Numbered from the stretch's first letter, positions 8,328-42,900 are shown. The stretch is DNA of 64,000 nucleotides from Candidatus Omnitrophota bacterium (GCA_043812955.1 JBDRLN010000018.1:13849-77848); one strand, 5' to 3'. Notes: generated from the letters alone by a model not told the origin. Program-made: numbers and translations.

Positions 8328-10100
8328 TTACCTCTTTATAATCTTTCTGAGGTCTTCTTTAGAAGGAACACCCTTGGAACTAAAAACCTCCCTATTATTT
8401 AATAGATAAGTTGGCCCGAACATGACCATTAATTCTTTATTCAGGCTTATATTCTCCCTCAATAAATTTTTTCCCTCATCAGACTGAGCGCAGGCCTTAA
8501 TCTTCGCGGTATCGAATTTACCCAGGCCGCAGTCATCCCACCAGGAAGTAAAGCTATTTTTCGCCCGGCAGCTGATATAGTCCCAGAAATATTCCGGAAA
8601 ATGTTTCTGCACACATACACTACGCAAGGCCTCTTCAACTTCCGCAATACCTTTAGGGGCCTCAAATTTATCTTCTTTCTCCACTGCCAGAAAATGTACT
8701 ATAGGATTAAATTCTTTTAATGAATCGAGTGACGCGAAACTATCCTTATCAAATAAGCTAAAAAATAGATCCAACCTGCCCTTAACAAATTCGCGATTAA
8801 GAAAATACGACATACCTGACATCTGAGGCAAAACCTGATAGAATTCATTTTTTAATTCTAGATTATTTTTCAGGTTCTCGAATTCCTTTTCCTTCTCCAG
8901 CTCTTTACCCAGAAAATAAGCCGGTAGACTTAGGATATCAAACTCCCGGATTAATTTATCCGCTTCCTTACCCGGGTAAGGGACTTCCCTAACTTCTAGC
9001 CCGTTGATCTTCTTCTTAAAGAAATTTACCATCGGGTTAATATCACATACCGCGCAAGACTTAGGGCTAATAACCAAAAACCGCACTTTTTGGGCCGCGG
9101 TAAACAGGCATTGAGATCTGATTTCGCCGGGATTCTGGCAGGTCCCAATCATTTTTTCTTTTTTACAGTTACTCTCGGAAAAACAGCGCGGGAGCACTAA
9201 ACTTATATCATCGTCATCAATTATTTTATCCGACAAACGTAATTCATCTATCCTGTAATCGGAAATTTTTTTATCTTTTATATTTAAAACTGCCTTGCCT
9301 AATCTACGGCCCTGCCAAGCCGGCCTTAATATCAAAGTGGAATTTACCTTAGCAAAGATACTCTCCTTTAAACGGCTATGCCCGATTATGACTACGTCGA
9401 TACCCGGCACATTTTTAATCAGCCTAACATCCTCATCTTCGCCTAACTGGCTTAACAATATAATTATATCAACGGATTTGGATTTAAGCTCATCTACTAC
9501 CTGTTTAACCTTAGTCCCGGGGTCCGCTATATCCAAACCCCCGGTTTTAGGAGCGATTGAAACCGGGGCAACTCCGATTATCCCGATCTTTACGCCAGCC
9601 AGCTCTTTTATCACGTAAGGCAAAACGTTATCTAATTTTAAATTACTGGAGACAAAATTTACTTTAGTTTCTTTTATAGCTTGCTGGAGAAATTCCCGGC
9701 CAAAATTAAACTCATTATCCCCTAAATTCAGGGCGTCGTATTTCATTAACTCCAGGGATTTAAGGTTTACCCGGGTCCGTTTCTTATCTAAATCCGTGTT
9801 CTGGGTATATTCATCCGTTAGTCCGCTGGCAAAAAATCCGCCTGAATCCAAAACTAAGGTATTGGCATTTTTTGCCCTTATTTCCTTTATCCGGCTAGCT
9901 CTCCGGGCTACCCCGCCGTCGGATTCTATCGGGCAGCTGCAGGGATAAAGCATAGAGTGGGTCTCGCCGGTGTAAAGTAGGGTGATTTCCTCGGCAAAAC
10001 AGGGAAACGCAAAATTCAAAACTAAAAACGTAAAACTGAAACTCAAAACTAAAAAAGTTTTTCCCGTCCAGCGCTTAAGCCATAGGGCGGGATCCCGCAT
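8328..10100 (-). CDS. secreted 5'-nucleotidase/metallophosphoesterase fused to a C-terminal DsbA-like thioredoxin-fold domain
   Basis: 5'-nucleotidase family blocks are present (LVLDSGGFF, LGDNEFNFG, VKIGIIGV, DVVIIGHSR). The C-terminal ~300 aa contains a CAVC pair and a DsbA-like GPTYLLNNRE. The ORF track extends to 10223 (MTIK..., an ATGA overlap with the serA stop), but those extra 41 aa are encoded by a copy of repeat family B. A canonical signal peptide, MRDPALWLKRWTGKTFLVLSFSFTFLVLNFAFPCFA, begins at 10100, which I take as the more likely start. Confidence 0.6.
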   Translation of the reverse strand: MRDPALWLKRWTGKTFLVLSFSFTFLVLNFAFPCFAEEITLLYTGETHSMLYPCSCPIESDGGVARRASRIKEIRAKNANTLVLDSGGFFASGLTDEYTQNTDLDKKRTRVNLKSLELMKYDALNLGDNEFNFGREFLQQAIKETKVNFVSSNLKLDNVLPYVIKELAGVKIGIIGVAPVSIAPKTGGLDIADPGTKVKQVVDELKSKSVDIIILLSQLGEDEDVRLIKNVPGIDVVIIGHSRLKESIFAKVNSTLILRPAWQGRRLGKAVLNIKDKKISDYRIDELRLSDKIIDDDDISLVLPRCFSESNCKKEKMIGTCQNPGEIRSQCLFTAAQKVRFLVISPKSCAVCDINPMVNFFKKKINGLEVREVPYPGKEADKLIREFDILSLPAYFLGKELEKEKEFENLKNNLELKNEFYQVLPQMSGMSYFLNREFVKGRLDLFFSLFDKDSFASLDSLKEFNPIVHFLAVEKEDKFEAPKGIAEVEEALRSVCVQKHFPEYFWDYISCRAKNSFTSWWDDCGLGKFDTAKIKACAQSDEGKNLLRENISLNKELMVMFGPTYLLNNREVFSSKGVPSKEDLRKIIKR

Positions 10101-10142
10101 AAAAAATATTAGATTCCCAGCGGGAAAACTTTTAGTTGTAAC

Positions 10143-10212
10143 CTTGCGCTTTTCCTGCCTAACTGCCGGATAGGCAGGCCTGCCGGCAGGCAGGGCGCTT
10201 TGCGCTTTTAAC
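10143..10212. repeat. Repeat family B-like nested palindrome (GCGCTTTTCCTGCCTAACTGCCGGATAGGCAGGCCTGCCGGCAGGCAGGGCGCTTTGCGC)
   Basis: Built from CCTGCC/GGCAGG palindromic units and a GCGCAAAGCG flank, as in the in-frame family B copies inside the giant gene (26877-26965, 31291-31395, 40395-40500). Confidence 0.55.
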
Positions 10213-10219
10213 TTAATGG

Positions 10220-11806
10220 TCATAATTTTATTACCTTTACAGCCAATATATTGTCCAGCTTTTTGATCTTTTCCAAAAGTTCAGGGGATATCGAGCTATC
10301 CACGTTTAATAAACTTACCGCTTCTTGACCCTCGATCTTACGGCCAAAGGTCATTGCCGCGATATTGATATTGTGCTTTCCTAAAAGCGTACCGATACTT
10401 CCGATGATCCCGGGTTTATCCCAATTTTTCATAGTCAACAAGTATCCTGACGGAGAAGCCTCAACATAAAAATCATCGATATTAACAATCCTGGGCTCTC
10501 TCTTCGGAGAAAGTGATGCCGCAAACTTACGGGTTTCTTTATCAGTGATTATCTTAAGCGAGATCAGGTTCACGAAATCCTCTTCCACTAAAGCCTTGGT
10601 CTCTTTGATCTGGATGCCCCTCGCCTTGGCGATTGGGATAGCATTGATAAAATTAACCGTATCTTTTAAAACCGGTTTTAAGAGCCCTTTGACTAATGCC
10701 ATAGTCAGAGAAGTGGTGTTATATTTGGTGATATCGCCGCTATACAAAATACTGATTTCATTGATCCTTCCCTCGATTATCTGGCCGGAAAAATCTCCCA
10801 ATTTCTCAGCCATAATTATATACGGCTGTAATACTTTATAAAGCTCTGAGTCAATATTTGGATAATTTGCCGCATTGCGAATGCCTTTACCGGATAAAAA
10901 ATCCCGCACGCATTCAGCTACTTCAATAGCTACGTTTACCTGGGCCTCTTCGGTTGAAGCCCCTAAATGGCAGCTGACTACCACATTATCCATTTTTAAT
11001 AATTCCGAATTCGGATCCGGCGGTTCTTTTTCAAATACGTCTAAAGCAGCACCCGCGATCTTGCCTTCTTTAAGCGCTTTGATCAAAGCCTGTTCTTCGA
11101 TTATCCCGCCCCTAGCGCAATTAATTACCCGAGCTGTCTTTTTCATTAAATTAAACTCTGCATCTGAAATCAGGTATTTAGTATCTTCGGTTAGAGGGAC
11201 ATGCACAGTAATAAAATCCGCAGTTTTTAATAATTCATTTAATTCTACCGCTTCGATCCCCATATGCTGGGCTGCTTCGCGGGATAAATAAGGATCGTAG
11301 GCCAAAACCTTCATCCCGAAAGAAAGCGCCCGCTTAGCCACTTCTGAACCGATTTTGCCCAGGCCGACTACACCCAGAATTTTCTGGTAAAGCTCGACTC
11401 CCATAAACTTAGAACGTTTCCATTCCCCGGCTTTAGTAGTAGAATTTGCCAAAGGGATACTCCGGGCCAAAGATAAAATAAGGCTCAAGGTCTGCTCGCA
11501 GGTAGAAATAGTATTGCCCGCCGGAGTATTCATTACCACTATGCCTCTCTCAGTTGCTGCCGGCAGATCTACGTTATCCAGGCCCACACCTGCCCTGCCG
11601 ATAACTTTCAGTTTATTGGCCGCGGCAATAATATCCTTGGTCACCTTGGTAGCGCTCCTGATTAAAAGGGCATCGTAATCTCCGACCATAGCCTTTAATT
11701 CTTCTGGCTTCATCCCGGTCTTGATGTCAACCTGAAAATCCTTATTTGACTTTAATATTTTTAAACCTTCTTCGGACAAAGAATCACTGACTAGAATTTT
11801 GAACAT
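10220..11806 (-). CDS. serA: D-3-phosphoglycerate dehydrogenase (with C-terminal ACT domain)
   Basis: 528 aa with the NAD-binding VGLGKIGSEVAKRA motif, the 2-hydroxyacid dehydrogenase catalytic region and a C-terminal ACT-like region. Confidence 0.9.
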   Translation of the reverse strand: MFKILVSDSLSEEGLKILKSNKDFQVDIKTGMKPEELKAMVGDYDALLIRSATKVTKDIIAAANKLKVIGRAGVGLDNVDLPAATERGIVVMNTPAGNTISTCEQTLSLILSLARSIPLANSTTKAGEWKRSKFMGVELYQKILGVVGLGKIGSEVAKRALSFGMKVLAYDPYLSREAAQHMGIEAVELNELLKTADFITVHVPLTEDTKYLISDAEFNLMKKTARVINCARGGIIEEQALIKALKEGKIAGAALDVFEKEPPDPNSELLKMDNVVVSCHLGASTEEAQVNVAIEVAECVRDFLSGKGIRNAANYPNIDSELYKVLQPYIIMAEKLGDFSGQIIEGRINEISILYSGDITKYNTTSLTMALVKGLLKPVLKDTVNFINAIPIAKARGIQIKETKALVEEDFVNLISLKIITDKETRKFAASLSPKREPRIVNIDDFYVEASPSGYLLTMKNWDKPGIIGSIGTLLGKHNINIAAMTFGRKIEGQEAVSLLNVDSSISPELLEKIKKLDNILAVKVIKL

Positions 11807-13091: not shown

Positions 13092-13124
13092 CCACCCCGT
13101 AGGTGTCTTACACCTACGGGGTGG
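13092..13124. repeat. Repeat family C hairpin, perfect 14-bp stem (CCACCCCGTAGGTG tctta CACCTACGGGGTGG)
   Basis: Intergenic between the clpP stop and the aminotransferase start. An identical copy lies at 22698-22730, and diverged in-frame derivatives sit inside the giant gene at 31268-31294 and 61111-61150. Confidence 0.8.
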
Positions 13125-17930: not shown

Positions 17931-17933
17931 GAT

Positions 17934-24957: not shown

Positions 24958-27900
24958 CTACGGCCTAATAGCAATAAATCTCATCCCTCCATAATAAAAA
25001 GTATTATACATATCATTAATCGCCTCGATTACCCCTATTTCTTTGAGGCTTTCTACATCAATCGGTTTAATATCAAGCCGGGGGTTAACACTTTTTAACT
25101 GTTCAAAATCAAACCTGCGGCCTTCATTTTTAACCAAAGCCAAAGCTATTGTTTTATATAAAATCCGGAAATTATTACTAATGGGTATCTTATTATAATT
25201 ATTTCTGCTAATTACCTTTGTTTTAAGCGATAATTCCTCCATAGCCAAATGATTAATTCCGTCGACATAACTCTTATCAACCATATCAGCCATCATAATA
25301 TCGTTTTCCGCCTCCTCAAATAACAGATTGAGTTGTGCCGCGTCTTCCTGGCTGAGGGCTTTACCTAAAATCCATCTTAATTCTACTTTAAACAATAATT
25401 CTTCAACCGATAACAAGGCCAGACTAGCTTTAAGATGAAACCCCCGGGCAAAATACCTGCTGGCATAAGAATCACTCTGCATTATCTCGGCAGTATATTC
25501 CGGAGTAAGCGCTAAGTTTATTTTTTCCTTAGCCTCGGAATATTTACCCTGTCGATTTAAGGCATCGGCTAAAATTATATGGCTTAAAACCAGCCAATCC
25601 TGTCTTTTATGATTCACCAACCATCTCTTAAACTTTAATAGTTCTTTTGCGTTATTTTCTATCTCCTGATTTAAATATACGCCTCCTACGTAGAACTTAT
25701 TTTTAGTCGACATTTTATCCAGATATTGGATTTTTTCAAAAATATACCTGGTCCGATTATCAGCGCCCTTAGACAAGCGGACTGCTTCATCAAAATCCGC
25801 TAGACACTCTTTAAGATTGCTTTTATCAAAATTAAGTATGGCCCGGATATAATAAGCTACCGGAGAAAAAAAATTCGGCGTATTGATAATCTCTTCGAGT
25901 TTATCAAAAGCCTCTTTAGTAAATCCTCTTTTTTTCTCGGCCAGTTTAAGATAAAAATCTTTCATTTTTATATCCTGCGGGTCATATTTAAATAGCTCGC
26001 CCAATAATCCTAATGCCAACGGATAATTCTTCGGTTCTCCTGATATAAGTTTTGAATTAATGATCCGGTATAATTTTTCCTTGTGCTTGTCAACAACCGG
26101 CGACGACGAGGGACACCCTTTCAGCCAATCGAGGGACACCCTTTCAGACAATCGGGATGATGTCCCCTGCTGTTTTACATCCAATACCATAGCCACCAAC
26201 GCTCCCATTCCTTGCCACGCTGGCAAACCTAATCGGGACACGCTGTCCGAGCCAAAGCGGACACTGTGTCCTAGAGCGGCCGGCGAGCTAGAACAAATAT
26301 TAGCTACTTCTGCAAGAAACCTTAATGTTTTTCTAAACATAATCTTGCCCACTCTATCCTTGCACCAAAGCGCCTTGCCAATATCCAAAGCCAAGGGATT
26401 ACAATCAAGCTTCCTTCTCTTTACATTAGAAAACCAGTCCTTCTGTAATTTGGCATAGTCAGACCCGGTAAATTCAATTTTCCCCATGAGCTTGACATTA
26501 ATAGTATTTAAGTCAAACTGTTCATCTTTGCTATTAAATACGTGGCCGTGGCGCCACATAGTTTCATCAAAGTATGTCCTGATAAACAAAATAACAGGCA
26601 AGTGTTTAAGGTCTTCTTCTGCGGCATCAAATTTATTTTTAATTTTCTTCATGCCTAATAGGAAAACCTCAAGTATCATCTCCTCTAAGAACTTCTTAAT
26701 ATTATTTTCTTCTATTCTGTTGCTTATAATATAAACATTGCCGTAAAATTGCTTAGAGTCGCTTTCCATTATTGAATTAAATAATGACTGCGGCATGCCG
26801 TGAATACCTATATCAGGCAATCTTTCAATTAATTTTTTTACCTGGATTTGATCTTGCCGTAGATTATTTTTAACAGCCGGCGAGCTTCCAACGCAAAGCG
26901 TATCGCCTGCCTGCCGATCAGGCAGTAATCCGTCACTTCTTCTGGCGGAAGACTGCGCCACCGGCAAGGCGGCCGGCGAGCTGGAGCGAAACGTACCCCG
27001 CGACGAGGTAGTTCCGTTTAATCCCGTATTATTTAAAGCCGCAAAGGGAAAGGTATATTCTTCTTCTATTTTCACCTCAAAATCCGCCAACCTCTCCTGC
27101 GCTTCTATAACGCATCCTATCCTGGAATTACTCTCATCCAGATCAACCATCTCTCCGACTAAAATTATCCTTTTCACTCCCAGTTCAAACTTTAATATCC
27201 ATCGTAACCTATCCCAATTTGTAGATAAGCCAACCGGGCAAGCCATCCCTTCCAATTCCACGGGCTCCAAATCATCTAAATAAGTATTAATTAAAATCCC
27301 GTATAAATTATATTTTCTAAATAATTTACCTGCCTCTGTCAATAAATCCATCTTTGGCTTTAACCTGATTGTACTTTTAATATAACGCTGGTCTCCTATC
27401 CCGGCGAATATGGGCCCAGGATAAGACCGGACACGATCGGATAACCTATGAATAAAACTCCGATAACCTCTAACGGCATTCCCTCTTATTGCTTTCCGCA
27501 GTATCAAGGGGACTCTCTTAAAATTCCTGCTGATATAATCATCTAACACATTTTCAAAAAATAACGGGTGGCTCCATAATATAATCTCGTGATTATTCCG
27601 CGAAATACTCCGCCGTAATTCCTCTGAGGCTAAAACTGTGGATATCGGGATAAGCCTTTGACCATTGCCTGCAGGCGGACTGGAAGGTTTAGGCCCTAAC
27701 CTATTGACGCTCCGATCAGCTACAAATTTGGAGGCAAACCCCAATAAAACCCTACCTAACCTAAGGAATTTAACCGGCGAGCTTCCTTTCGGCACTGGCG
27801 AGGCGGAGGTTTTTTGGACTAAGGGAACAGCTGTGCCTGCAGATTTACCCAGCTGATAAATATATCTAAAAGCCTCATCTGGATTGTCACAAGAACTTAA

Positions 27901-30900
27901 AAGCGCTAGATAGCCAAGGGCATCGGCATAATCATATACCCACGCATTGAACCTCTCAGTTAGAATTTGAGGAATTATATAATCGCCAGGCCCAAGCCCC
28001 TTAAATACTTCGTCCAGTTCGCTTAACGTATCTACTCCTCTTGATTTAAATCTCGGGTATTCATTAATAGTAATTATTTTTCTTAAAATGGCCTCTTTCT
28101 GCCGAAAATTAAGCTTAGGCTTAATATGTATTACATCCACCAAGTGCCAATAGGCAGCCCCTGCATAGCTAAATTTATACCCTTTAATTTTGTAAAAAAT
28201 CGTATTGGCATAAGCATGGGCTAACAAAGGATGGTCGGGCAATTCTAGAAGATGGGCCATTTCGTGCGCCATATACCAATAAAAAGCGGTTAATCCTTCG
28301 ACATTATCCTTAGGTATAATTATTCTGCCTTTAATTGTTACCCCCATAGAGGGAGACACAGGGAAGAGAAATTTGTTTATATGCCAGACTCCCGCAATAA
28401 TAACACTCAAACCTAAAATGAATTTACCAAAACCCCTTCTGGATAATATTTCTTGAGGGGTTGTTGCCTTTGCCCCAAAGTATAAAGCCAAACCCGATAC
28501 CCCTAAAAATCTTGCCTCTTGAAGTTTCTCTTGACCTTTTTCAGAAAATCTCGGGTGGTCGAGCGACCGAATAACTTCCTGACAAATTTCTTCTTCCGAG
28601 AATTCCTTAATCGGAAACCCGACAAACCTAGAAGCCTCTTTATATGCATCATATACATCTAATACTACTGGTTTTAGTTCTGGTTTAATTTCATCCCCTT
28701 TACTAAATAGAAAAACTCCGTCATAGAAAAGTTCTTTAAGTAGGTCTAGATAGGCGAATATCATCCCATATATTTTTAAACTTTTTAAGAACCCCCGCCT
28801 ACTTTGTATACCCTCTATAGAACCCTCTGCTGCAGAAGAAGATACAGAACAAATACCTTTATCGGATTTGCCTGATAACCTATTATTTGGCAATGGTTTA
28901 GATAGAGCGTCTCTAGAATCTCTTACTGCCGGCGAGACAAAGGCCGGGCTGGAAGATGTTTTATCCATTGATATGCCTAATATATTTTCTATAAAACTTT
29001 CCGGCCAGCTGAAATACAATTTAAAATCTATATTGTTGCCTTCTTTAGCTGTAAACATAAACTCAGGGACCCAAGAACCATCTTTCCTCAAATACCCTTT
29101 TGTCCTGGCGGGGTTAATTTCAAGCAGTGCAGAGTGGCCGCGAAATGACAGGGCAAAGCGCGCTAATTTAAATTCTCTCCCCAGCCGCGCTTCTAATTGA
29201 GTTATTGAAGGTAAATACCCGGAAGAAACAATCAGAATGGTTGCTTCTTGCGGGCTTATATTATTATTTTTTAATTTGGATTTCAGACTCCGGATAAAAT
29301 AATCCAGATCTGCGTCTTTGTTCTCCCTGTACTTTAGGTAAACCTGCGCCAAGGCAGCAATTTTTCTGTCTTTAGCAATAATGAGGTAGGCGTCTTTACT
29401 ATTTAAAACATTGGAGACAAAAGTTTTATTATCGTTGCCTATGCCGCGAAACTGGTTGCCGGAGCTAAAATTGTCTATAGAAGAGGTAAATAAAATTACT
29501 ATCGCTGCTGCTATTAAAGAAGGATATTGTAGACGCTTTACGTAATCTATTACTGGAGAAGATGTTGCAGAATAAATACTTCGAACTGAACCTGTTGGCC
29601 CGGCCTTATTCAACCCTCTTTTGGCGATATAATTTAAAAATAGTGAGCTGGACTTATTAGTTATTATTTGATAGTTCATAGTTAATAGAGAAGCATCTCC
29701 CATTAAACTACCAACTACTAACTGCGTACTATGAACTAAACTAGCCGGAGAACTGGTAGTTGGTACGGCCAGATAGACGAATTCAAAATCCGACTTTCTT
29801 TTGCCGCTAGAAGTAGTAAGCAGGGCTTTGGTGATTGATTCTAAACTAAGGCTGCTTCCATAAAGATGGTAACCAACCCCTATCTTAAATCTCTCTTCCA
29901 TGATGCCGAAATGTTCAAACAAAGCTGGACGCTGCGGCAAATAAACATAGTATTCATTTACTGAATGCCCTAATGCCTTTCTTAGCATGCTATAAATAAG
30001 AAAAGAGCCTAACCCTATTCCCCGGTAACACTCTTCCTCTACCTGAAAATAATACCTTTGCTCTGTTCCCATCTTCAGCTTACCTTTGCGGATATGAAAT
30101 AAATTATATCCTACCCACGCTTCATTAAAATCAGCTTGATCAACTTTGAGAATTAAATGATAAAATTGCTCGTCACTAAAAAATTTGACAAAATTCCGAT
30201 TTTCCCTTATTGCAAATATTCCCTTCTTATTCTTTACACCTCCGATGAGTTCGCCATCCATTGTCTTAAAGGGCAACTGTCTTAGTACCATCTCTAATAA
30301 ATTTTGGGCGTCTATATTTTTACCCGACGCCGGTGAGGCGGCGGTATATTTAGCGTTTAGCGAATAACGGTTAGCAGATAGATCAAATAGACTACTATAC
30401 ACTCTACGCTCCATGCTATCCGCTGCTTTTTCCACCGGTGAGGCGGCAACCTTTTGAATAATCCTAACTGGCACACACCCTGCGGTAAAGGAAGTCCCAT
30501 CAACAAAAGATTTATTAATCTCACTCGTGCACAAGGACAAGATGTAGTTTACTTTTTTATATTCCCGCTTCATTAATACATCCTTAAATCCTTGCTGCTT
30601 TAATAAAAAATTAACAATCCAAAAATCGTGTTTTGAGGCAATAATAATAAAACCGTTCTTATGCAATAATTCTTTAATAATTTTTTGAATCAAGTTCAAT
30701 ATGGCTTTATCCGCTCCGCCCTTGACATAAGGAACTATGTTCGCGTATAAACCCTTGCTCCAAACAGTCAATCCTTTTACAAATAATACATCTATGCCGC
30801 CCGCCTGTTTTATTTGAGGAAAATATGATTCCGTCTTAAAATTATTCGCGACTATCGTAGTTAGATTTTTTGTCTTCTCTTTAAAAAATACCGGTAAGTT

Positions 30901-33900
30901 CATTTTCTCGCTAGCCATATTTTCTAATGCCTGCGGGCTTTGAACTGTGATGCCTAAACCGAATCCATTAAACATCTCGGCATTAATCCCAAACGTCCTA
31001 GCGGCAAAATAGGAAACAAAATAATCATTGCCGATCGAATTATATAGGACATTGCCTCCTAAGACCCCCATTTTTTTCAGGAGATGTAATATTGTAATAT
31101 AGTGTATAAGGGCGTTATCTAATCTTAACTTGTCATACTTAATATAGTCTCTAGTCCTTAACCATGTTAACGTTTGCCGGTCTAAATGAATTTGGTCAAG
31201 TATCCTTTCTATGTCGTTTTCGAAGAATAAACGGTAGAAATATTCCTCATCTAAAGGCGAGCTGGACCCATTTCCACCCCGTAGGTGGAAATGGTTTGCG
31301 GCTGGCGAGCTTCCGACACAAAGCCTGGCGCTTGCCTGCCGGTCAGACAGGGATCCGCCACGTATTGTGGCGCGGGGCTGAAGCACTGGTTCCTCAAACC
31401 AATTCACTATCAATCTACGGGTTCCCGGGATCATCTCGCCACCATTGATGAGAGGGCTCGATGTCGAGGCGGAACGCTTATCCATTAACATTACCTCCGG
31501 GAAACCTTCACTCAGGAATTTTGCCAAAGTTTCAACTGCGAGCTCCGCATCTTCGCCTTCTGCAATAAGCTTTACCTGGGCTGCGCTTATCCATGAATCA
31601 ACGATAGCATCCGCAACCGCTGCCAGCGAATCCAGTATTTTTTTAAGATTTACGGTTTCATTTTTATGTTCTATATAGATACGGGATAAAAATTTATTAG
31701 CTAGCGCCACTAAATTGCTGATATCATGTTCGTGTACTTCTTCGCAATTATCAACTATACATATTTTTTCTATCCTTTTCAGAGTATTTTCTTCAGGTGA
31801 AGATTTTACCGGCGAGCTGGATATAACAAAACTGCTACTATTTACTTCTGCCATTTTCACTTTATCTAATTTATAATAAGTTGTATATACGGGATCAGGA
31901 ATATTAGAAACAATTCTAAAGGGATCTGATTTTTGAAAAATTAATGGGATGCCTAATCCGGCATTATAATTTACTATTTTCAAACCTTGATGTGGTATAA
32001 ATTTAAAATCTCTTCCCCAAACCTTTATACTCCGCAAAATTGTTTTAGGTTTTATGCAAACTAAATTTGCAAATCCTACTCCTTCCGGTTTCAGCCTCCT
32101 TTTAAGAACATTGTAAACTTCCACTCTATCTTTGAAATATTGGCCAACATTATACCCAACCACAAAGATATCAAATAGGCCGGCCCCCAGAAATAATTGG
32201 CCCTCGTTCAAATCCCGCAAAATAAAATTATTCCTAAGGTGTTGAGAGTATCTTTCCGCCCTATCTAGGTCTATTTTCACTCCTAACCTTTGCATAAATC
32301 GGCCGGCTATACTATTTGCGTCTATTTCAACGAGATCATGCTTCGCTAAGGAGTAAAAACTTATCCCCTCTATATTTATTCTTTCTTTTACTTCCAGCAA
32401 AAACATTAATTCAAAAAGTTCATAACCCCTGCCCGGGCCGACCCATAAAATACTGATTTCGGGATTTCTTTTCATACTTTTTTTAATTCTGCTTAAAATT
32501 GACTTATAGAGATGTCCGTCGAATGCTTGGTTAATCTCCCTGAAAAAGTGGCTAATATAACCTTCAGGATAGTTAATCATCGGCGAGGCGGCGGTATTGT
32601 TCCTTATGGCCGAATTGCGACCGGAATGAATCGTTTGATTGATGGATTCATTTTTTGACTCAATGCCAGACAATGGGCTAGATACAGCGTCTACATCTTC
32701 TTTTTTGCTTAAATTTGAAGATATCGATGAAGTAAAGATAAGCCTGTCCACCCAGAAAAAAATCGCCGCGCCGATTAAATTAGCTATGACCGTCGCAAAT
32801 AAGCTGACGCCTAACCACCAGACAACCAACCACAAAACAGGGGTACTCAACTGCCAACGGATAAGATAAAGAATAAACCTTTTTATTGATAGCCCGCTGT
32901 TCGTTTTTTCTGCCGGATTGCTGGATTCTTTCTCTACAGGCGAGGCGGCGGCATATATGTTATTGATTATAAAACTGGCTGAATAAACGGCAGGGTTTAA
33001 AAACGCAGCTTTAAAAATTAGCAGCGGCTTTGGACCTGCCCTGATAGGACAGCTATCCATCAGCGGACTTGAACCGGAGTTTTCCGTAGAATTATCGGTT
33101 AATGTAATAGCCTGGGCCAAGCTCTTGCCTTCCCAAAGTAACCTGGCTACAAAATATTTGGAAGGTACATCGTATGGAAAATAATAATCCAGCGCTCCAT
33201 ACAGCATCTTTCCGTATTTATAAGTCCAAACCGGTTCTCTTGATAGGTTATCCCATAAACTCACCCTGCTCGCATCCAGTAAATATTTCTGCAATATCCC
33301 TACCGGGACAGCGCTGGCGATCAATTCACCTTCTGAGATATATTTACCTTCGGTTTCGGAAGATTTAATCATCTGAGATAATAACCTTTTTTCTTCTAAG
33401 CGTATAAGATTTATTAAATTCGGCAATCCTTCCCGATGAGCCTTTCTCAATTTTCCTGGCCATAACGCGTGAATAAATTCATGGGCAACAGTTAGTTCGG
33501 AATTTAACTCTACTAAATCTTTTGACCAAAGTTTTCTCCGTTTAACCAATATAGTCCAATTGCCAAGCACGGACTTATAAGCTGTCCCTAAACCCGGACA
33601 ATAACCTCTACCTCGACAAAAATCATGTAGCCGATATTTTACATGCATATAAAAATACAAAATAATCGTAGAAATAGCGATGCTGATTAGGATAGAACTA
33701 AATTCGTTGTCCGGGATTAACCCAAAAGGCTTAATTATAAATTCAGCATATGCCCAGAAAACCGTAAAAGCAGGCAACCCCAACAATAAAAACCCGGCTA
33801 AAAAAATAACCGACTCGCCGATAAAACCTACCATGTTTAACCATGAAGTACGCGGCGTATACGGTCTAACCGTAATTGCCGAAATAAATTTTTTAATTTC

Positions 33901-36900
33901 CTCGGTTGGTATCTCCGGATATAGGCGCGCTGCTATCTCTTCCATTTTTTTGCGAGCAGATTTAGCGTATTTTTTTGAAAAAGATTCTAAACCAATCGCC
34001 TTCTCAATAAATGAATCGATCTTCCGCGTCCATAGCGGCGCAACTCCAAAAACTCTATTTGTTACCGGCGAGCTGGAACAGCCTTCAGCTTCGGATATTT
34101 TCTTCTGGCTTAGGCTGGCCAAATCGGCTATAAGCCGATCGAGTTCTTTTTTAAAAGCTTTTCCTGACTCCTGACTCCAGAAATAATTAAATACCTGGAC
34201 TCTGGATAAACCATTTAGAATATCGCAAAGCATAACTGGATCTATTTTCATTAATGGCTTAAGCCGGCAACAAAGATAGAGGTTAATATCGCTAATACTC
34301 AAATTATGAGCGCCTAACCACATCTCGCTATCCCGGATTAACAAACCTATCTCATGCTCTATCCTCGCTCGCCTATCAACTATTTCAATAGCCCTTAAGA
34401 AAATATATAATTTCTTAAAATATTCCCCCAATTTTAGCTGTAAAGCATTCTTTTGTTCTGCGCTGACGGTTTTCTCGCTACTTTTGATATATTGTATGCG
34501 CAGACGAACATTATTAATTAATTCAACCAATATCTCGCCGGGATTATAAATCTTTTCCTGAAAACCAAACTGGGGATGATTTAAAAACTCTTTTAAATCA
34601 CTGGGATAATTTCTGGCCCCAAGGCGTAAATTACTAGATCTTGCTATAACTAAAGCTTTCTGAATAACTCTGTTGTTATCCGCTGAATCTACCATTGTCA
34701 TAACAGAATTTAAAATACCGCTAATACTTACATCGCTACTCCCTTGAAAAATTTCACTCAGTAGCATTTTTTGTTTTTCCCAATCAGCGCCTATTCTGTT
34801 AAATGCCTCTTCAATTAAACGATTAGACAACAAGCTATTACTCTTAGCAGCCGGTGAGCTGGCAGAAACCATGCTTACTCCGATAATTACATCGAATTTC
34901 GCCCCGCTTAACTGTCTTATTTTGGCGTTGATTATTCTATCCATATACCGGTAGTTCTCGGGTAAAAACCTTATCCCATACTTTTTCTCTTCTTCTCTCG
35001 CAAATGCCAAGGTGGTATCGCTACGGAGAAAATTTTTCATCTGGGCTAAGGGGAACTTCGCAGAGAATCCCTTATTTTCAGTAAAAATAAATTTTGGAAC
35101 TCTGCGCTGCCTAATTCCGGAGCCGTTAAAAATGAAGGCTTTGATTGTCTTTACCACATAACCGTCATCTGCTTCTCCAAAATATACGATATTCCTTATA
35201 TTACTGAATCTGGGTTCGGTAAGCACCTGAAGGTGGGGCCTGCGCAATTTCGAAGTTCCGATTACCTGTTGATATAGCTTACGCAGGGTAAGATGGAATT
35301 TAAATTCAAAAACAGTATTATCGCTGATCGCGTCAAATTCCTTGCCCGCCCCCCTCTTATCATAAAAAATCGGGTTAACTGATTGCACAATGCCCAAACT
35401 TATACCTTCTAAAGTAGTCCCTCTTTTGATGATTGCCTCATAAAGCCCGGATATTTCTCCGGCTAGACCCAGGACCTGTCCATTGCCGCTTTCTCCCTTA
35501 TAAACCCCTTCTGCCATTTTAGTAATGGCATTATTAACAGCCGCTTGGACGACAGATTCATTTTTACCCTTATAAACAAACAGCTTCTGCATCTTAAGCC
35601 ATAATCTGTTAAAAGAGAAATCTCTAGCGGCAAAAGCACTGATTACCAGAAGGCATTCTTTTAATTCTTCCGGCAAGGAAGAAGTTTTTATCTGTGTAAT
35701 ATTTTCAAGAAGGCTTTCAAGCGGCGAGGCGGCCGGCGAGCTGACGCCCTCATGGTATAGCCACAACAAATCACTAATTATCTCAGCCTGCCATTCAGGG
35801 ATTAGCTTAAGAAATGACGCATGTGTTACAATTTCATCTGGGGAATTAATTTTTGCTATGCTGTTATCGGAGAGTTTGAGGTTCGTGGTAATATTTAATA
35901 CCAGCTCCGGAGGGGCGCGGGCTTCTTGAGCCAGGCATACTGCCAGCTTCTGCAAACCAGCTCGCGACCCCAGAGCAATCCTACCTTCAGCTAAAATCAC
36001 GCTATATTTACCATTATTCAATTTAAACTTAATCTTAGCAAACAATTCCTTGCCGTATTCCGTTTCTGCCTCCTGCTGATCCTGCGCAGATACATCCAAA
36101 TACGATCTGATCGGCGAATTTACGCCGTAGACGTATCCGCTTCCGGCGGTGAACTGTGCCGCCGGCGAGGCGGCGCCTTGGCGCAAATCAATAAATTCAA
36201 ACCCCTTAGAACTAGCAATATTGGGTAATCTCCAGGGTGTGTTATTATCAAATGGGGCTTGCGGGTTTACGGCTAAATCTAATACCATATCGAACTCGGT
36301 TTTAATCGTACTCCTCACTAAGCCCAGCTTGCTCCAAAAGTCAAACTGACATGGCAGAGCCTTTAAAACAATAAACTTTTGGAGATTTAGACTATGCGCT
36401 TCCTCTATAATTAATGAGCCTATTGCCGAAAAAAGCCCTTTTTCCTGAAATGACGGACTAATATTGATATCCGCACGCCGGTTATCAATAACCATAGCAG
36501 CTTCTCTTTTATCCACGCGGTAATGACAGTAGCCGCAGAAAGGTCGTTCTGTTTCTATAAATTTATATCCTTCTCCCTGATAAAGTTTATCTTGATTAAT
36601 CCTATGTAAATCAATACTGATTAATGCTTCGCTGGGTATTTCCTTTTGCCTTAATGTAAAAAGCTCTTCTTTAATTAAGACAACCAACTGCAACACGCCG
36701 AATTGTTCTTTTTCTAATAACTCAGCGTTATCTAAACTAATTTTAACTGGCGAGCTGGAACCCCTGGAGCCCGATACCGGCAAAGCAGCAGATGATCCGG
36801 CTAGATAGACGGATTCAAAATCCGACTTTCTTTTGCCGCTAGAATTAGTAAACAAGGCTTTGGTGATTGATTCTAAACTAAGGCCGCGGCCATAAAGACA

Positions 36901-39900
36901 GTAGCCCACTCCTTTTTCCAACCTCTCTTCTTTAATACCGAAATGCCGGAATAAACCCGGCTGCTGCAGATAAACATAATATTCATTTACTGAACGCTCT
37001 AAAGCTCTTCTTAACATACAATAAATAAGAAAAGAGCCCAATCCTTCATTCCAATAATCTTCTTTTATCTTTAAATAACTTTCTCGCTCGTGCCCCATTT
37101 TGAGCTCATTTATAAGAATATAAAATAAGATATTTCCTACTCGCGATTCTTTAAAATCAGGCACGTCAACTTTTAGAATTAAATAATGAAATTGTTCACC
37201 TTGGCTTAAATTGATAAAGGTGCGCTTTTCTCTTACTATAAACATCCCTTTCCTGTTTTTTATGCCTCCAATTAGCCTGCCGTCTATCGCCTTAAGCGTG
37301 ATCTGCCTTAGCGCATACTCAAGGCCGTTTCTTTCAACGCCTGAATTGCCCGCCGGCGAGCTGGAAATTGTATTAAATTCTTGGGGACTAAATAGAATCT
37401 TTACGTCCGCGCCCCGATACAAACAGATCCCTTCTCTCCTTCTTATCGTCCGTCTGTTTAACTCTAAACCATACTGTTTCTTATAAATATCTTCCGCTAA
37501 ATCAGCAACTAAATAAGGGTTCCCGGGAAGGAAGTAGTAATCTGGGCCGAATTCTACTAAGATATCGATCATATCTATAAACAGCCTATTTAAACCCGCG
37601 CTATTTACGGCTTTTCTCAAAATAAAAAACTGGGCATAGGCATATTTATGAAAACCTGCGTCATAGATTGTGTTTGAACTTATAAACTTAAACGCTGATT
37701 TAAAAATACAATATGTGAATTCATTTCTTTGCTCCTGTCTAATCTTTAGTTGATTTAGTAGGACAGCCGCTGTAAATTCTGCAACAAATTCCTGTAATCC
37801 GGCAAAGGCTCTATATTTTGAATCAACGGAAAGCGGATTAGAATTATCCTTTAATTTTACAATAAACGATTGATTAGGGAAAAGAGCGTAAAGCCAATTA
37901 TGGCCTATTTCATGCGCGATTATTCTTAGGATTCCTTCAATACCATGGCTCAAATAATAGCCCTTAAGCCTGGCATAGTCATATTTAAAATTCGCGTTGG
38001 CTGTTCCACGATAAGAACCTATATCTAAATTCTGTATAATCTTTTGCGTAATACGCCTAACTATCGCGGGCGTAAATAAGGTATCTAATGACAATAACTG
38101 TACCGAAAGCGCAATATTCCACCCCAATAACTCTTCTTGAATCATTTTTAGCGTATTGTATTTAAAATACCGGTCTATCTTTTCTCGATACTCCATAGAT
38201 ACAAGTTTCTCGTTCAAATCACTCCTTACCAGATCGATTGAACGCCGTAGCAAAAAATTGATCCGCGAATTAATTAATAGGATTAGTTGATGGGTTCCAA
38301 CTGGCCATTTACCAGTTGCCGGCGAGCTGGCCTGCGGCGCCAGCGGCGAAGAAACAAATTCAAATTCTGATGGGTTTCTTTGGACCTTGATTCTTACACC
38401 AAGATGATCCGAGGCCAAGAAGATTCCTCCTTCATTTTTTATAACTTTTAATCCCTCAAATAGTTTCTTTAAACGTTCCTGATTCACTTCATCTGTTTTA
38501 AATAAAGAACGATACTGGGATATATACTCGTTAAAGGTGGGTTTAATGGTAACCGTATCAACAAAATCTCCATTCTCTGCCCAACGAAACACCCTAAAAA
38601 CAAGATTATAAATATACCAAAGAAACATTATCTCTGGATTTATCGCTGCTAACTCATCATCTATGACTTTATAACTACTCTTAAGCCTCCCATCGGGAAA
38701 TTTTATTATCATTTTATTAACATACCCTACAAATTTGCTTACCCTCCATTCAGACACCGGCGGGCTTGAGTCGAGAACCTCATTTTTTTCTATTTCTACA
38801 AATATTTCCGGGTATAGTTTCTTTAACCATGGCGTAATTTGTACGTCATTTTCTTTATAGATCACCTTAAATCTCTCTCCCAATTCTTCCGTAAATGGCA
38901 ATTGCATGCGGCCATCCGCCAAAGAATGGCCCCTAAGTATGAGCTTAAGCGCTGCGTCAGTAAGTTTAAGGCTAACTTTCGGATTTTCATTTTTATAATA
39001 TAGACTTAAAAGATACCAAACTTCACCGATATATATCGGAATATTTAAAGATTCATGATAAGACATATCTGGCTCTCTTTTTATTACCTCATCCGCGCAA
39101 TAGTTAAACATATCCACAATTAAATCTTCCGGCAGCTGACATAGTATAACGAAAAGTTCTTTATGTACGCTTTCACTTTCTAAAAATAGATAATATATAT
39201 TACTAGGATCAATATAATAATAAGCTTTCATGACTTCCCTTACCCACCTTGCCGTACTTTCATAGTCACCCCCTATCTTAAGATTGCGTAGTTTATCCTC
39301 TATTTCTTGAATAGATATTCCTTTGGGTGGAAAAAGATACCGTCCCTCCTTTAAAACGCTCATATCAGGCGTTCCCCATTTCCATTCCCGCTGCCGCCAA
39401 TAGGGATGCATATTAGTCTCAACCGGCGAGGCGGCGGTTTCACTCCTGACCCTGCTTTCATCCGCCGGCGAGCTGGCATAAAGCGTAGATGCCGGTATTA
39501 TTTTTCCGTCTACGGTTGCATCATTACCGCTAACCAATAAAGCAGAATAATCTCTCCGCAGAGAACCAGTAATGGCTCTGTGAAGATGTGCCGGCAAAGG
39601 CACCTCTTCACCCTGTTCTATCAAAACATTCGTAAAAAATATGGCTTCTGCTCTGTGTTGCGTTAACATGCCACTCTGCGCCGGATCTAAGAGATCGATA
39701 TATTTCGGCTCTACCAACGCGCGGATGTTGTTTTTCAAACGACAATAACGCGTGTCGTCCTTTACGATTTCGAAAAAGATATCAAAGTTTTCTTGTGTTA
39801 TACACTCGCAGACATAGGCAAGCTTATAAATACCCATTTTTACCGCGTATAAAAGCGGTATATTTTTATCCCAAGCCTCTATTCCTATGCTCCATGGTAA

Positions 39901-42900
39901 AGAAATAGCAAGGTTATCTTTCGCACGCAAACCTCCCCGTTTACCATAGAGGGCCATCAGGATAGAGTACGGCTGGTCTCCGCGCGAACAACCCAGGGAT
40001 TTTATGGTGAGGTGAAAATCTTTTTTCTTTTGTTTTTCTGGTACGAGCATATTGAGAAAGTTATCTAGATTCCATCGGTCAACGAATCTAAACAATGTCG
40101 ACATTTTCTCAGCTTCATTCAAGGGCACAAAACCGTTAAAAATCGCTCTGGTAATATAGCGGCGCTCTGTAGCATGGTCAGCCCCTGTTTTTTCGAGTAC
40201 CTCCAGATACCCGGTCAAATCGGTCTTCCAAGAACGGGCGCGCGATGCAATAAAATCCTGACATACCTCTGCCAGAAAGACTGGCAGCTCGACAGTAGCA
40301 AGACGGAAACTAAACACGGGTATTGTTTGATTTATGAACTGAGACAGATAATGCAAATCTTCGCCATTAAGAATAAAACGGATAACTTCCTCTGTTTTTT
40401 TATCCGCCGGCGAGCTCCCGCCACAAGGCGTGTCGCCTGCCTGCCGATCAGGCAGGGATCCGCCACGTATTGTGGCGGAGGACTGATCCACCGGTGAGGC
40501 GGCGATCTTAGTTAATTTATACACAAAGATACCGCCAAACGGAGCACTTAAGACGTGGAAACAATCTAAAACAGAATGCCTAAATTTACCTTTAAGTTCT
40601 TTGGCTAACCGCAAAGCAGGCGGATACTGTGAACGTAAATCCGGATAAGGTATTATAATTGTGCCATTTTTCTTAAGGAAGCCGGGAGACTCGGTAATGA
40701 AACGTGAGGTTAACCTGAATTTAGGATCGTGCGTAGCAAGATGTTCCGGTTTCTCAATAGGCATATCTACGAAAGGCGGATCAAATATTATGTAATCAAA
40801 TTTTCTGTCATTAGGAATGTTAGAAAAAAGATCGCTTACGATAGCTTCTGCCTTGTCTTCCAAGCCGGTAATTCTAAAATTCAGGTTAGCATTATCTACT
40901 TGCTCTTTGAATGCGTCAACCGCTAAAACAGAACCGCCCTTCAAGGCGGCTATTATAGCTTGAATGCCGGAGCCTGTGCCCATATCCAAAACTTCCTTAT
41001 TCCTGAAATCCGCCTTATTGAACAGCGCGTTTGCTAATATTGCGGTAATTAACATATCAGGTGGGTATGTTCCCGGAAAACTAACGATTACCGGAACCGG
41101 TTGGTCCGGGAAATACCTTTTGATCCCAAAAACGATTGTGTTTAACTTGAATTGGCGCTTAGTTACTGAAACTACATCCTCTGATTGGCCGGCCGGCGAG
41201 CTGGAGTGTTTCTTTTTTAGGATCTTTTGTTCAAAATATTCTTCTATTATTAATGCCGGGTCGACCGGCAAACTGGATAATTTACTAGGGTTGTCCGCCC
41301 GCAAAACGGCGTCCTGATTAATATCTATCGATACATAAGAATCAGTGTGACTTTTTGATTCACGTAGAATTCCTACTAAACACTTAACAATAACGGTTGG
41401 AATGGCAAAAATTAAATAGAAGGAAAGATAGAACTGCCAGGTAAAATAAGGTTCGGCTGCCACAAGATATAAATCTAGAATAAAAGCCGTAAGCCAGGGG
41501 ATAATGATCAACTCTGAACTCGTAGACCAGTACGTAGAAATAAATTTTAAAACAATAGGATTAATCTTTTCTTTAGAAAAAGATATTTGGATTTCTCCTT
41601 TGAAGAACAACGTCAGAAATGTTTTTAAAGAGATTGATTCCCAAATTATTTCTTGCGGCAATAATTTCTTAAGAGTAAAGGGGATGTGCAAGATTCTCCA
41701 AAGGTTAAAAGTTATCCAAGTTGAAATAAAAAGTGAGCCAAACATTCCATATGTCAATATGAGCGGGCTTTTAAAATTCCAGCCATTAAACCAAAATAGA
41801 AATATTAGATTCGCACTTCCAACAAAACCGCCTACTTCAATCAAAGAAGGCACCATGATCTGGCCTATAAACCACCCTATCTTCGGCAATCCGAATTTCA
41901 TAAATAGTTTTTGAAGGTAGGAATAAAATCGTTGTAAGAACGGCCAGCCAATGAATACTACATTGACTCTTGGTATATTGGAACGGCCAACCGGAGAGCT
42001 GGAGGGGCGCAAATAAATTTCTACCACTGATTTCAATATTTCTATTTGTTTTTGTTCCGGCAATGTAAAAAGGTAGGGATTAATTAAAAAACGTGTTAAG
42101 GAACGGTGGGCTATAATAATATATTCCGGAGGTGCGGTAGCCATATGATAACTAGTCAATATTAAACGATTTTTTAACTTTTCCTTCATGCCGGAGACAG
42201 CGCCGGCATAATTATCGCCATATAATAAATAAATTGATTTGGGTAATCTTAACGGCCCCATTACACTCAGTTTAGAACATTCCTCTTGGACAAATGTATG
42301 GATTATGTCAACCCTAACTCCGAACTTTTGAATTAATCTGCCTGTTATTATATTAATATCAGCAGCATCTACCCTCTTCATCTTTGGCCATAATCTAACA
42401 GATAATAATTCAGTTAACGTTGCCAATTTTATCTTATCATTATTATCTTTGGAAATTTCCGCCGGCGAACTGGAATAAAATAGCTCCCATAAACCTTTTA
42501 TCCGCTCATCTACAGAGACTGCCCGACTTCCGATAAACCAAAGACTGCTCTTTCGGGCATTAGGAAATCTATCATAAACAATACATTTACCTATCCTGAT
42601 AGAATCTCCGATTGCTTTCTTATTTTCTCTAAGCCATCCTGCTAATGAATCGTCATACCTGGATGAATCTTCAGCAAAGATTTCTTTATATGCCCCTGCT
42701 ATTTTGCTAAATTCTTCCTCTAGAATACCAAACCCCCCAGGGTTAGCTGTAATAGGCAACATAAGATAAAATTGCGCGCCGGGCTGATTTTCCCTGTATT
42801 TATGTGCAGCTATACTTTTAATAGCGTTAGCAACGCAGGTAGTTAGGTTACATCCAAATATAATAAAATGTTTCCCGGCAAAGAATTCTTTACGCAGCTC

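Follow-up and report, generated by a model that had tools for sequence, protein, structure and literature searches.

The window analysed here, a 64,000-nucleotide stretch from the genome of a Candidatus Omnitrophota bacterium, carries all of its genes on the minus strand and includes a giant multi-enzyme ORF (24958..63975, minus strand) of at least 13,005 codons that is still open at the window edge. Pfam recognises several SAM methyltransferases in this ORF, together with a Glu/Leu dehydrogenase, B12-binding and radical SAM domains, a CheR-like module and HPr. Giant Omnitrophota genes in which many distinct Pfam domains tile one very long polypeptide have been described as a 'multi-enzyme metabolic cluster' class (bioRxiv 10.64898/2026.06.07.730766), and the ORF, which is the host gene of the repeats considered below, fits this class. 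Neither that paper nor the second one on giant Omnitrophota proteins (bioRxiv 10.1101/2023.11.21.568195) mentions palindromes, hairpins or linkers in giant genes, and both the repeat elements and the 12-mer linker of the giant gene appear to be undescribed so far.

The neighbours of the giant ORF are housekeeping genes encoding UppS, a GH57 branching enzyme, PurA, a homocitrate-synthase-like protein, SerA, a SerC-like protein, ClpP and trigger factor. Every named organism among the top SerA homologues is a Candidatus Omnitrophota, and the order TF-ClpP-SerC-SerA-(584-597 aa protein)-HCS-PurA-OmpA is kept in three relatives. No transposase was found in the window by Pfam scans or by synteny with relatives, which cover nearly all ORFs. 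The gene for D-3-phosphoglycerate dehydrogenase SerA (10220..11806, minus strand) lies directly upstream of a palindromic element (10150..10212, minus strand), which is followed by a UshA/5'-nucleotidase-like gene (8328..10100, minus strand). We count four copies of this repeat, termed family B, in the 64 kb, one of them intergenic, 8 nt after serA, and three intragenic, in the giant ORF. The window also holds two more hairpin families, each of which occurs both between genes and in frame in the giant ORF. A separate window family, CCACCCCGTAGGTG, carries GTAG.

Three family-B copies are translated within the giant ORF

Repeat grouping within the window brought together a 107-nt family at 26867-26973, 31292-31398 and 40397-40503 (copies 1 to 3), with 66-82% identity. 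The 19-nt palindrome that a preliminary description of this DNA had reported is indeed present, in that the 19-mer CTGCCTGCCGATCAGGCAG is exact at 26907 and 40437 and has 3 mismatches at 31332, with 0 occurrences expected; CCGCCACGTATTGTGGCGG is exact at 40460 and has one mismatch at 31355. As that description also stated, all three copies are in frame in the minus-strand ORF 24958-63975. They are free of stops and read ...ATIRGGSL(P/S)DRQA...C(G/V)GSSPA or ...SDGLLPDRQAGDTLCVGSSPA, with ...SSATIRGGSLPDRQAGDTPCGGSSPA and variants of it recurring across the three.

Copy 3 (40397..40503, minus strand) is the best preserved and scores 63.2 bits with a covariance model that we built from 14 family members. 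It encodes AASPVDQSSATIRGGSLPDRQAGDTPCGGSSPA, at about residues 7826-7857 of the giant ORF, and according to Pfam lies between an MTS-type methyltransferase module and the CheR-like module. The latter, on the 3' side of the copy, is a stand-alone gene in another organism (homologue P0001), the alignment with which begins just past the element; searching for homologues of the 571 aa that surround copy 3 yielded two distant matches only. At the core of this copy lies a long palindrome of 63 nt, CCCGCCACAAGGCG-TGTCG-CCTGCCTGCCGATCAGGCAGG-GAT-CCGCCACGTATTGTGGCGGA, with two perfect 8-bp stem-loops at 40436-40456 and 40459-40479. When compared to shuffled sequences, the copy folds with a z-score of -3.9 as RNA and its core with one of -6.7 as single-stranded DNA. 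The tandem of independent hairpins that had been proposed is not what folding returns: the best fold is a single long nested palindrome of 9+5+8 bp, with the outer stem CCGCCACAA/TTGTGGCGG.

Copy 1 (26867..26982, minus strand; 51.9 bits) encodes SSSPAALPVAQSSARRSDGLLPDRQAGDTLCVGSSPA and combines a perfect 7-bp hairpin at 26907-26925 with a second, imperfect one (CCGTCA/TGGCGG); its fold z-scores are -2.0 and -2.8. Copy 2 (31292..31398, minus strand; 49.9 bits) is decayed. It encodes RATIRGGSLSDRQASARLCVGSSPA, its first hairpin, CTTGCCTGCCGGTCAGACAGG, contains one mismatch and one wobble, its second keeps a 6-bp stem, and its fold is at shuffle level (z -0.2). A GTAG hairpin of another family, A (31268-31294), adjoins copy 2, and a further linker motif stands on the far side of this hairpin.

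The preliminary description had assigned to every copy two perfect 7-8 bp stem-loops and a linker motif at either end. Two perfect stem-loops are present at 40.4 kb, but the 26.9 kb copy has one perfect stem-loop and the 31.3 kb copy is decayed. Likewise, bracketing by the linker holds at 26.9 kb only, where exact CCGGCGAGCT stands on both sides, at 26877 and 26973, 96 nt (32 codons) apart; at 40.4 kb the closing motif is the variant CCGGTGAGGC, and at 31.3 kb the left motif alone is present, with one mismatch. The repeat is therefore real, but its regularity had been overstated. Derivation of the copies from a single local duplication, which the description had set against dispersal, does not agree with their surroundings: the 400-residue flanks of the three copies are mutually unrelated (BLASTP, all E > 0.1), and hence the giant-gene copies are not pieces of one local segmental duplication.

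Hairpin elements lie beside interdomain linkers

The giant ORF contains 60 [SA]SP[AVL] linker motifs, compared to 1.2 expected, with a strong TCG/CCG codon bias. At the nucleotide level, the linker core CCGGCGAGCT is present in 31 copies (at most one mismatch) in this ORF, all in a single orientation and with random flanks, and most of them extend to the 12-mer CCGGCGAGCTGG, as at 26973..26984 (minus strand; CCAGCTCGCCGG on the mRNA strand, read SSSP). All hairpin elements of the three repeat families (7/7) lie within 21 nt of a linker, compared to 16% of random positions that lie within 40 nt of one. The 12-mer was absent from all 147 loci that we fetched and does not flank insertions elsewhere, from which we conclude that it is neither part of the mobile unit nor a general target. 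The suggestion that CCGGCGAGCTGG serves as a common insertion target was thus not confirmed, and the motif is specific to the giant gene. The two other hairpin families of the window were also absent from all fetched loci, so that these families and the linker 12-mer appear to be genome-specific. The linkers may either be the sole places in the giant gene where an insertion is survivable or have descended, together with the hairpins, from former intergenic spacers; the stand-alone CheR-like homologue, with its start immediately past copy 3, fits either reading.

A putative relative of family B in the serA-ushA spacer

The element at 10150-10212 lies 8 nt past the serA stop codon (10220-10222) and about 50 nt before the probable ushA ATG (10100-10098), and it is oriented oppositely to the copies in the giant gene. 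Read on the mRNA strand, it consists of GCGC-AAA-GCGC, followed by CCTGCCTGCCGGCAGG and then by CCTGCC-TATCCGGCAGTTA-GGCAGG, and this layout of a small hairpin, a CCTGCC-type hairpin and a third hairpin is that of the family. A direct repeat, TTGCGCTTTT, flanks the element at 10144-10153 and 10200-10209, and its fold z-scores are -1.3, -2.3 and -2.8. The spacer core CCTGCCTGCCGGCAGG is a perfect-palindrome variant that adjoins the 21-mer described below in two Omnitrophota loci (L050 and L118) and in an unclassified metagenome contig (L138). The relationship of this leader palindrome to the family, as previously proposed, is real but weak, with a covariance score of 18.8 bits and an E-value of about 0.016 on a rough calibration; we regard 10150-10212 with moderate confidence as a diverged relative of family B. 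An intrinsic terminator at this position was considered and rejected, as the element has no U-tract and the sequence after its minus-strand hairpins is AAAAGCGCAAGG. The only candidate from a terminator consensus scan, at chance frequency, was a separate hairpin of 5 bp at 10126-10114 with a T-rich tail.

The long ORF 8328-10223 opens with an ATG at 10223 that overlaps the serA stop codon (ATGA) and reads through the palindrome as SALPAGRPAYPAVRQ; 41 residues precede M42, and a signal-peptide-like stretch follows it. The segment is open in frame, as noted in the preliminary description, which had considered it a 41-aa extension of the protein should the upstream ATG be used. Alignments with solved 5'-nucleotidases and NCBIfam UshA-like models start about 36-38 residues past M42, and in relatives the UshA-like orthologues are 584-586 aa long and start 10-18 nt after serA. 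These observations indicate that the extension is most likely an annotation artefact and that 10150-10212 is intergenic, with M42, as predicted from these alignments, the probable true start. The 5'-nucleotidase identity of the downstream gene was corroborated by matches in the PDB (1.6e-17) and NCBIfam (5e-39); Pfam gave no match for this gene. The situation of the 41-aa extension is the one that Di Nocera et al. described for REPs at predicted N-termini (PMC3733652).

The serA-ushA spacer measures 119 nt here, compared to 10-18 nt in relatives with 75-76% identical SerA. In GCA_041643295.1, the SerA of which is 95% identical, a different hairpin, CTTGCCTACCGGTGAGGCAGG, with different flanks occupies the same spot. 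The short spacers of the relatives and the different variant in this close one indicate that the spacer gained its element within the present sub-lineage and turns over much faster than the flanking genes.

Anatomy of the family and a 51-nt composite

The window copies are most similar to a 51-nt three-hairpin composite found in metagenome-assembled genomes (MAGs) of Omnitrophota and Planctomycetota, the canonical form of which is TCCGCC-NNN-GGCG-CCTGCCTGCCGGTCAGGCAGG-GATCCGCC-NNN-GGCGGA. Its units are a 21-nt core, CCTGCCTG-CCGRT-CAGGCAGG, with an 8-bp stem and a 5-nt loop, and 15-nt CCGCC-NNN-GGCGG flankers. Core and flankers can fold as one long imperfect hairpin, and the minimum-energy fold of the 51-mer is a single nested hairpin (z -4.6). 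All unit lengths are multiples of three (15, 21 and 51 nt, and 63 nt in the window), and direct reading of the canonical 51-mer showed that 5/6 reading frames are stop-free. Across the 14 members used for the covariance model, 94% of cells are paired, compared to 25-46% with slid partners, and helix 2 reaches 98%, while the loops vary. Double changes occur at three pairs, a result reached by 6/500 shuffles.

A metagenome scan for the right half of the composite returned 11 contigs, most of them with the canonical 51-mer or a close variant, and we found the composite in frame in OTCase, RmlA, NadA, TsaC and a Mur ligase. When aligned with solved structures, the RmlA copy stands exactly opposite a 17-residue gap and the OTCase copy adds 14 residues net, both at what these alignments place as loop-like positions of the solved homologues. 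Two of seven composites have 7-nt A/T-rich flanking repeats, which are incompatible with the reading frame. The composite contigs also hold further copies as well as chains of 15-nt mini-hairpins.

Database searches did not connect the family to a described element. Rfam gave no meaningful match, either for the whole window at gathering thresholds or for copy 3 by E-value; a literature search with the element DNA strings and encoded peptides retrieved no relevant paper; a word-index search with the 48-aa element peptide gave no candidates; and the 51-mer, compared by BLAST to PLSDB plasmids and isolate phages, produced chance-level partial matches only. Several other kinds of element were considered and rejected: a ribozyme or mini-intron, as no conserved catalytic motifs were seen and the inserts are stop-free with a biased frame; a CRISPR array, as there is one copy per locus and the spacing is irregular; and an rRNA or tRNA fragment, as Rfam finds no match.

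The 21-nt core in other genomes

The preliminary description had made its reading depend on further copies elsewhere, and these were found outside the window, in other genomes. Scanning 185,579 species genomes with an 18-mer pattern yielded at least 119 loci, and the exact 21-mer CCTGCCTGCCGGTCAGGCAGG was present in at least 82 instances, compared to about 0.3 expected in 596 Gb. Variants with CCGAT or other loops have random flanks and stand at the chance level of about 17-20 matches per variant, and the only enriched variant has a CCGGT loop with CC...G flanks. Among the matches listed, carriers of the 21-mer represent about nine phyla and include Bacteroidota, Patescibacteria, Planctomycetota, Omnitrophota, Acidobacteriota, Saganbacteria, Sumerlaeota, Thermodesulfobacteriota and a Zetaproteobacterium. 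Two carriers, Terrimonas pollutisoli and Mariprofundus erugo, are isolates; almost all others are MAGs. Viral contigs added 11 exact 21-mers from about five independent sites. Related contigs contain 2-4 copies or variants of the element each. Two pairs, L027/L116 and L064/L088, were initial candidates for orthologous sites across species and were discarded, being contigs of the same MAGs and thus intragenomic repeats.

The flanks of the 21-mer in the matches listed are random, save for a G at position -1. Flanking repeats of at least 4 nt surround 15 of 80 instances, compared to 5.5 expected, which is a weak excess, and no convincing target-site duplication was found in these 80 instances. 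About 35 of the listed instances lie inside long ORFs, and use of the reading frame is biased: 30 listed instances with at least 80 open codons on both sides are read as LPAGQAG/LPDRQAG. Among the matches listed, the two orientations are used equally in coding contexts, and the stop-containing frame (PA*PAGR) is represented by one coding instance only. The frame bias suggests that the 21-nt insert is translated and filtered by selection. In comparison with solved homologues, the 21-mer corresponds to an exact 7-residue insertion just before the DHE motif in adenine deaminase and to a net 7-residue insertion in TrpRS. An element of the family is also found in frame in BipA elsewhere.

Discussion

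Taken together, our data make it probable that family B and its relatives are small, non-autonomous, GC-rich palindromic repeats of the REP/REPIN-like type, with the in-frame Rickettsia palindromic elements (RPEs) as their nearest functional analogue. They would thus be a known kind of element, but the family itself is apparently undescribed. The preliminary description viewed the repeat as a miniature insertion element that preserves reading frames, and this view gained support mostly from evidence outside the window. The evidence for an insertion element comprises the unrelated flanks of the copies, the spacer of 10-18 nt in relatives versus 119 nt here, and the insertions seen in RmlA and OTCase and in adenine deaminase and TrpRS. 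Since the unit lengths are multiples of three and no target-site duplication is made, the frame of the host gene is kept and the insert is read as a short Ser/Ala/Gly/Pro-rich loop, for instance GGSLPDRQAG. Precedents for such insertions are found in intragenic REPs, which encode 20-30 residues, and in RPEs (PMC3733652, PMC10969869).

Under this model, the element would spread via a single-stranded hairpin intermediate and be mobilised in trans by an enzyme encoded elsewhere, which might be HUH/Y1 RAYT-like or of another type. The linkers, being probably disordered joints, would tolerate copies, the encoded peptide of which would be neutral, and purifying selection would clear those that fall in structured parts of proteins or in less tolerable frames. 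The remaining copies would then decay, and the 31.3 kb copy may be an example. The RNA hairpins may also act on the 39-kb mRNA, for example through ribosome pausing at module joints or protection from 3' exonucleases, but this would be secondary. As no pair of empty and filled sites was seen between near-identical strains, we infer transposition itself, and with it the mobility of the family-B element in this genome, from the comparisons above. More tentatively, the 21-mer CCTGCCTGCCGGTCAGGCAGG, the perfect 20-nt variant and the 51-nt composite may constitute one undescribed cross-phylum family of ultra-short mobile palindromes that are frame-preserving by construction, a proposal that we take seriously but place somewhat short of probable. 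The exact identity of the 21-mer across phyla is hard to reconcile with ordinary REP biology.

The giant-gene copies could also have been captured from former intergenic spacers instead of being inserted. On that reading the giant ORF would stem from fused neighbouring genes, and the hairpins would be scars of these fusions, that is, formerly intergenic REPs or terminator-like structures that became coding once stops were lost. Such a history would account for the position of all hairpin elements at module joints beside linkers, for the occurrence of the three hairpin families also in true intergenic spacers of the window, and for a CheR-like module that stands alone elsewhere and starts where copy 3 ends. 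We nevertheless consider it unlikely, given that inserts of the family are found inside single-domain enzymes without any gene boundary and that the 60 linkers share a 12-mer which is absent from intergenic spacers; it also concerns the route of entry rather than the nature of the element, and to that extent overlaps with the REP/REPIN-like explanation. Alternatively, the hairpins could be a selected RNA or DNA structure that acts in cis on the 39-kb transcript through pausing, protection from 3'-5' decay or as processing marks, and that in the leader separates the expression of serA from that of ushA. The loss of the fold in 1/3 copies (z -0.2), the presence of a hairpin in only 3-7 of the 60 linkers, the use of both orientations and of arbitrary loops of ordinary enzymes elsewhere, and leader hairpins without a U-tract on the mRNA strand, which the separate hairpin at 10126-10114 does have, make this quite improbable, even though base-pairing is kept while loops vary, the folds are strong, their positions match domain boundaries, and a role as RNA elements has been suggested for REPs that lie near the 3' end of the upstream ORF (PMC3733652).

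Selection could also operate on the protein, with GGSLPDRQAG...SSPA as a selected linker or recognition peptide, for instance a protease or modification site, and the palindromy as an incidental property. The segments are always in frame and stop-free, their frame is biased to LPDRQAG/LPAGQAG, and the SSPA motif is over-represented (60 versus 1.2 expected), all of which would be expected of such a peptide. However, the nucleotide identity across phyla is exact and includes synonymous sites, and therefore cannot stem from peptide selection. The same DNA moreover gives different peptides in its two orientations and is also present in non-coding spacers, and two of the three core differences between copies 2 and 3 are non-synonymous, so that a protein-level repeat is very unlikely. 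Finally, we find it scarcely credible that the 21-mer, or the family, is an artefact of assembly, contamination or library chemistry. In favour of such an origin, nearly every carrier is a metagenome-assembled genome, exact identity between phyla is out of the ordinary, and a 21-nt insert keeps frames whatever its source; against it, the carriers stem from a wide range of laboratories, assemblers and read types, with the isolates T. pollutisoli and M. erugo among them, the flanking genes are specific to their lineages, use of the reading frame shows a non-random bias, the insertions fall at alignment-inferred loop-like positions of solved homologues, related viral contigs share the same site, and variants of the element coexist within contigs.

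If the REP/REPIN-like reading and the cross-phylum family are true, selfish palindromes inserted in frame extend beyond Rickettsia and are widespread in uncultivated lineages in a much smaller form, which would be the smallest known case of selfish DNA in protein-coding genes, and its length of 15, 21 or 51 nt would itself be an adaptation to gene-dense genomes. Exact identity across phyla would then imply a shared, horizontally moving machinery, either a mobiliser acting in trans or a templating one. Linkers of Omnitrophota giant genes would be one safe haven among others, with some copies located beside active-site motifs of housekeeping enzymes. For the giant genes themselves, the interdomain linkers would be nucleotide-level features that collect repeats, which bears on how such fusions are built up and maintained. 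The 21-mer and the covariance model provide a handle for an insertion census, for a search for the mobiliser by phylogenetic profiling and for the dating of insertions. For annotation, this reading would account for odd 7- or 17-residue Ser/Ala/Gly/Pro-rich loops in conserved enzymes of MAGs and for spurious N-terminal extensions such as the 41 residues before the UshA-like signal peptide here.

Comparison with known mobile repeats

GC-rich hairpin-forming mini-insertions in the coding sequence of an AT-richer genome are also known from the mitochondrial GC clusters and the translational-bypass 'byp' elements of yeasts and from the hop in T4 gene 60. Ribosomes skip byps, which are often frame-breaking or contain stops and in which take-off and landing codons are matched. 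We rejected translational bypass for the elements described here, because their copies are stop-free and in frame; with a frame that is under selection, this argues for translation and against byp-type skipping.

Like bacterial MITEs (Correia/NEMIS, ERIC, Nezha and others), the family is small and non-autonomous; some MITEs also make in-frame fusions, and their RNA hairpins are able to alter mRNA fate. MITEs, however, have IS-derived terminal inverted repeats and target-site duplications, whereas the family-B unit is wholly palindromic and insertions of the family are exact additions of 21 or 51 nt without duplication; no candidate parent IS was identified for it. Without a transposase and without target-site duplication, the family is REP/REPIN-like rather than a classic MITE.

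REPs (repetitive extragenic palindromes) and REPINs are imperfect palindromes, rich in GC and 20-40 nt in size, that commonly combine in pairs as larger hairpins and typically lie just downstream of ORFs; their families are GTAG- or CGTC-tagged (Di Nocera et al. 2013, PMC3733652). The same paper reports intragenic REPs with 20-30 encoded residues, among others in the PVC bacterium that it calls O. terrae. Family B shares with them the short, GC-rich, imperfect palindrome with a stem-loop and, in the 51-mer and the core of copy 3, the inverted doublet that folds as one long hairpin. It also resembles REPs in the position of 10150-10212 just downstream of an ORF, in the lack of target-site duplications and in the coexistence of several families per genome, and may do so in its dispersal. 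In contrast to REPs, it has no GTAG/CGTC tag beside the 21-mer or the 51-mer and no RAYT gene in the window, its unit lengths are multiples of three, and the sequence of its 21-mer core does not vary across about nine phyla, in contrast to REP families, which as a rule are confined to a genus or order.

RPEs, in turn, are in-frame palindromic elements with ten families (Ogata et al. 2000, as summarised in PMC10969869 and PMC1779305). They are about 100-150 bp long, AT-rich and restricted to Rickettsia and allies, and they share no sequence similarity with family B; the elements described here are 21-72 nt long, GC-rich in a 40% GC genome and distributed across phyla. With RPEs the family nevertheless has in common that palindromic selfish DNA resides in frame in unrelated metabolic genes, has no associated transposase and is translated as an extra peptide compatible with the fold of the host protein.

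Linker motif and extent of the giant ORF

Considering the giant ORF (window 24958-63975, minus strand), in which multi-enzyme modules are joined by SSPA-type linkers, we counted 60 linkers of the form [SA]SP[AVL], compared with 1.2 expected from composition, and in 31 of these 60 the motif core CCGGCGAGCT is present, either exactly or with a single mismatch. The majority of the core copies extend to the 12-mer CCGGCGAGCTGG (for example at 26973-26984, 37353-37364 and 41193-41204), which reads CCAGCTCGCCGG on the mRNA strand and is translated as SSSP. All copies of the motif share a single orientation and have random flanks, and the linker codons are GC-rich, which is atypical of the giant gene (40% GC). 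The motif was not found in any of the 147 other fetched loci. Its conservation is at the nucleotide level. The motif could mark a joint left by recombination, a site of processing or a point at which a polyprotein is cleaved.

Since the frame is open up to the window edge (63976-64000; KNGERILSLGCG...) and the listed TTG start sits within the first methyltransferase motif, the giant gene is probably longer than 13,005 codons and continues outside the window. An internal duplication of ~270 nt (29745-30016 versus 36777-37045; 79-85% identity, 7.03 kb apart) provides evidence that segmental duplication also adds to parts of the gene. In the Omnitrophota relative represented by locus L147, a multi-domain ORF of 2,368 residues (L147 2677-9783) with GDPGP1_N and phosphoglucomutase domains is inserted between SerC and SerA; this ORF is missing between SerC and SerA both in the window and in L145, a further fetched locus, so long fusion genes are gained and lost amid conserved synteny.

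Repeat families within and outside the giant ORF

In other contigs, the GC-rich palindromic family B takes the form of chains of 15-nt mini-hairpins with a stem of 6 bp and a loop of 3 nt (types TCCGCC-NNN-GGCGGA, TCTGCC-AAA-GGCAGA and CCAGCC-TTC-GGCTGG). Such chains are located in three of the fetched loci (L133 1700-1800, L136 1530-1625 and L142 2360-2398) and, when translated in frame, yield the five-residue beads SAxGG, SAKGR and PAFGW, for example within quinolinate synthase NadA. A third repeat family of the window, ~78 nt long and made of GGACACGCTGTCC-type hairpins, has copies that are 67-82% identical, one of them intergenic (17930-18007) and two in frame in the giant ORF (26210-26287 and 59306-59383), where they read ...RHSVRFGSDSVS... 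and are once more bordered by SSP linkers on both sides.

In two upstream regions of the window, 3172-3281 and 14731-14803, a T-run leads into arrayed repeats of the ACGGAT/ATCCGT type (TCACGGATT..., TTATCCGCGTAAATCCGTTATTTTATCCGTGT), with 85-90% identity between the two regions. The GH57 branching-enzyme gene has one of these regions upstream of it and the trigger-factor gene has the other, and they may constitute a regulator-binding array common to both genes, or a promoter module. For the UshA-like protein (8331-10100), the best NCBIfam model was 'UshA-like (seleno)protein', with a score under the model cutoff, and comparison with Pfam gave no match; the protein has a CSCP motif close to the N-terminus, and the motifs expected of a metallophosphoesterase (YTGETHS, LGDNEF) appear to have diverged in it.

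The second palindromic family of the window carries a GTAG tag (CCACCCCGTAGGTG-TCTTA-CACCTACGGGGTGG) and gave seven matches, compared with 0.09 expected. Its intergenic copies (13092-13124 and 22697-22731) form a perfect stem of 15-16 bp. Further copies are in frame in the giant ORF: at 31268-31294 a half-unit lies within a new palindrome and is read as HFHLRGGNG, and at 61118-61150 two direct arm copies are read as HPVGGRHPVGG. The family looks like a classical GTAG-type REP.
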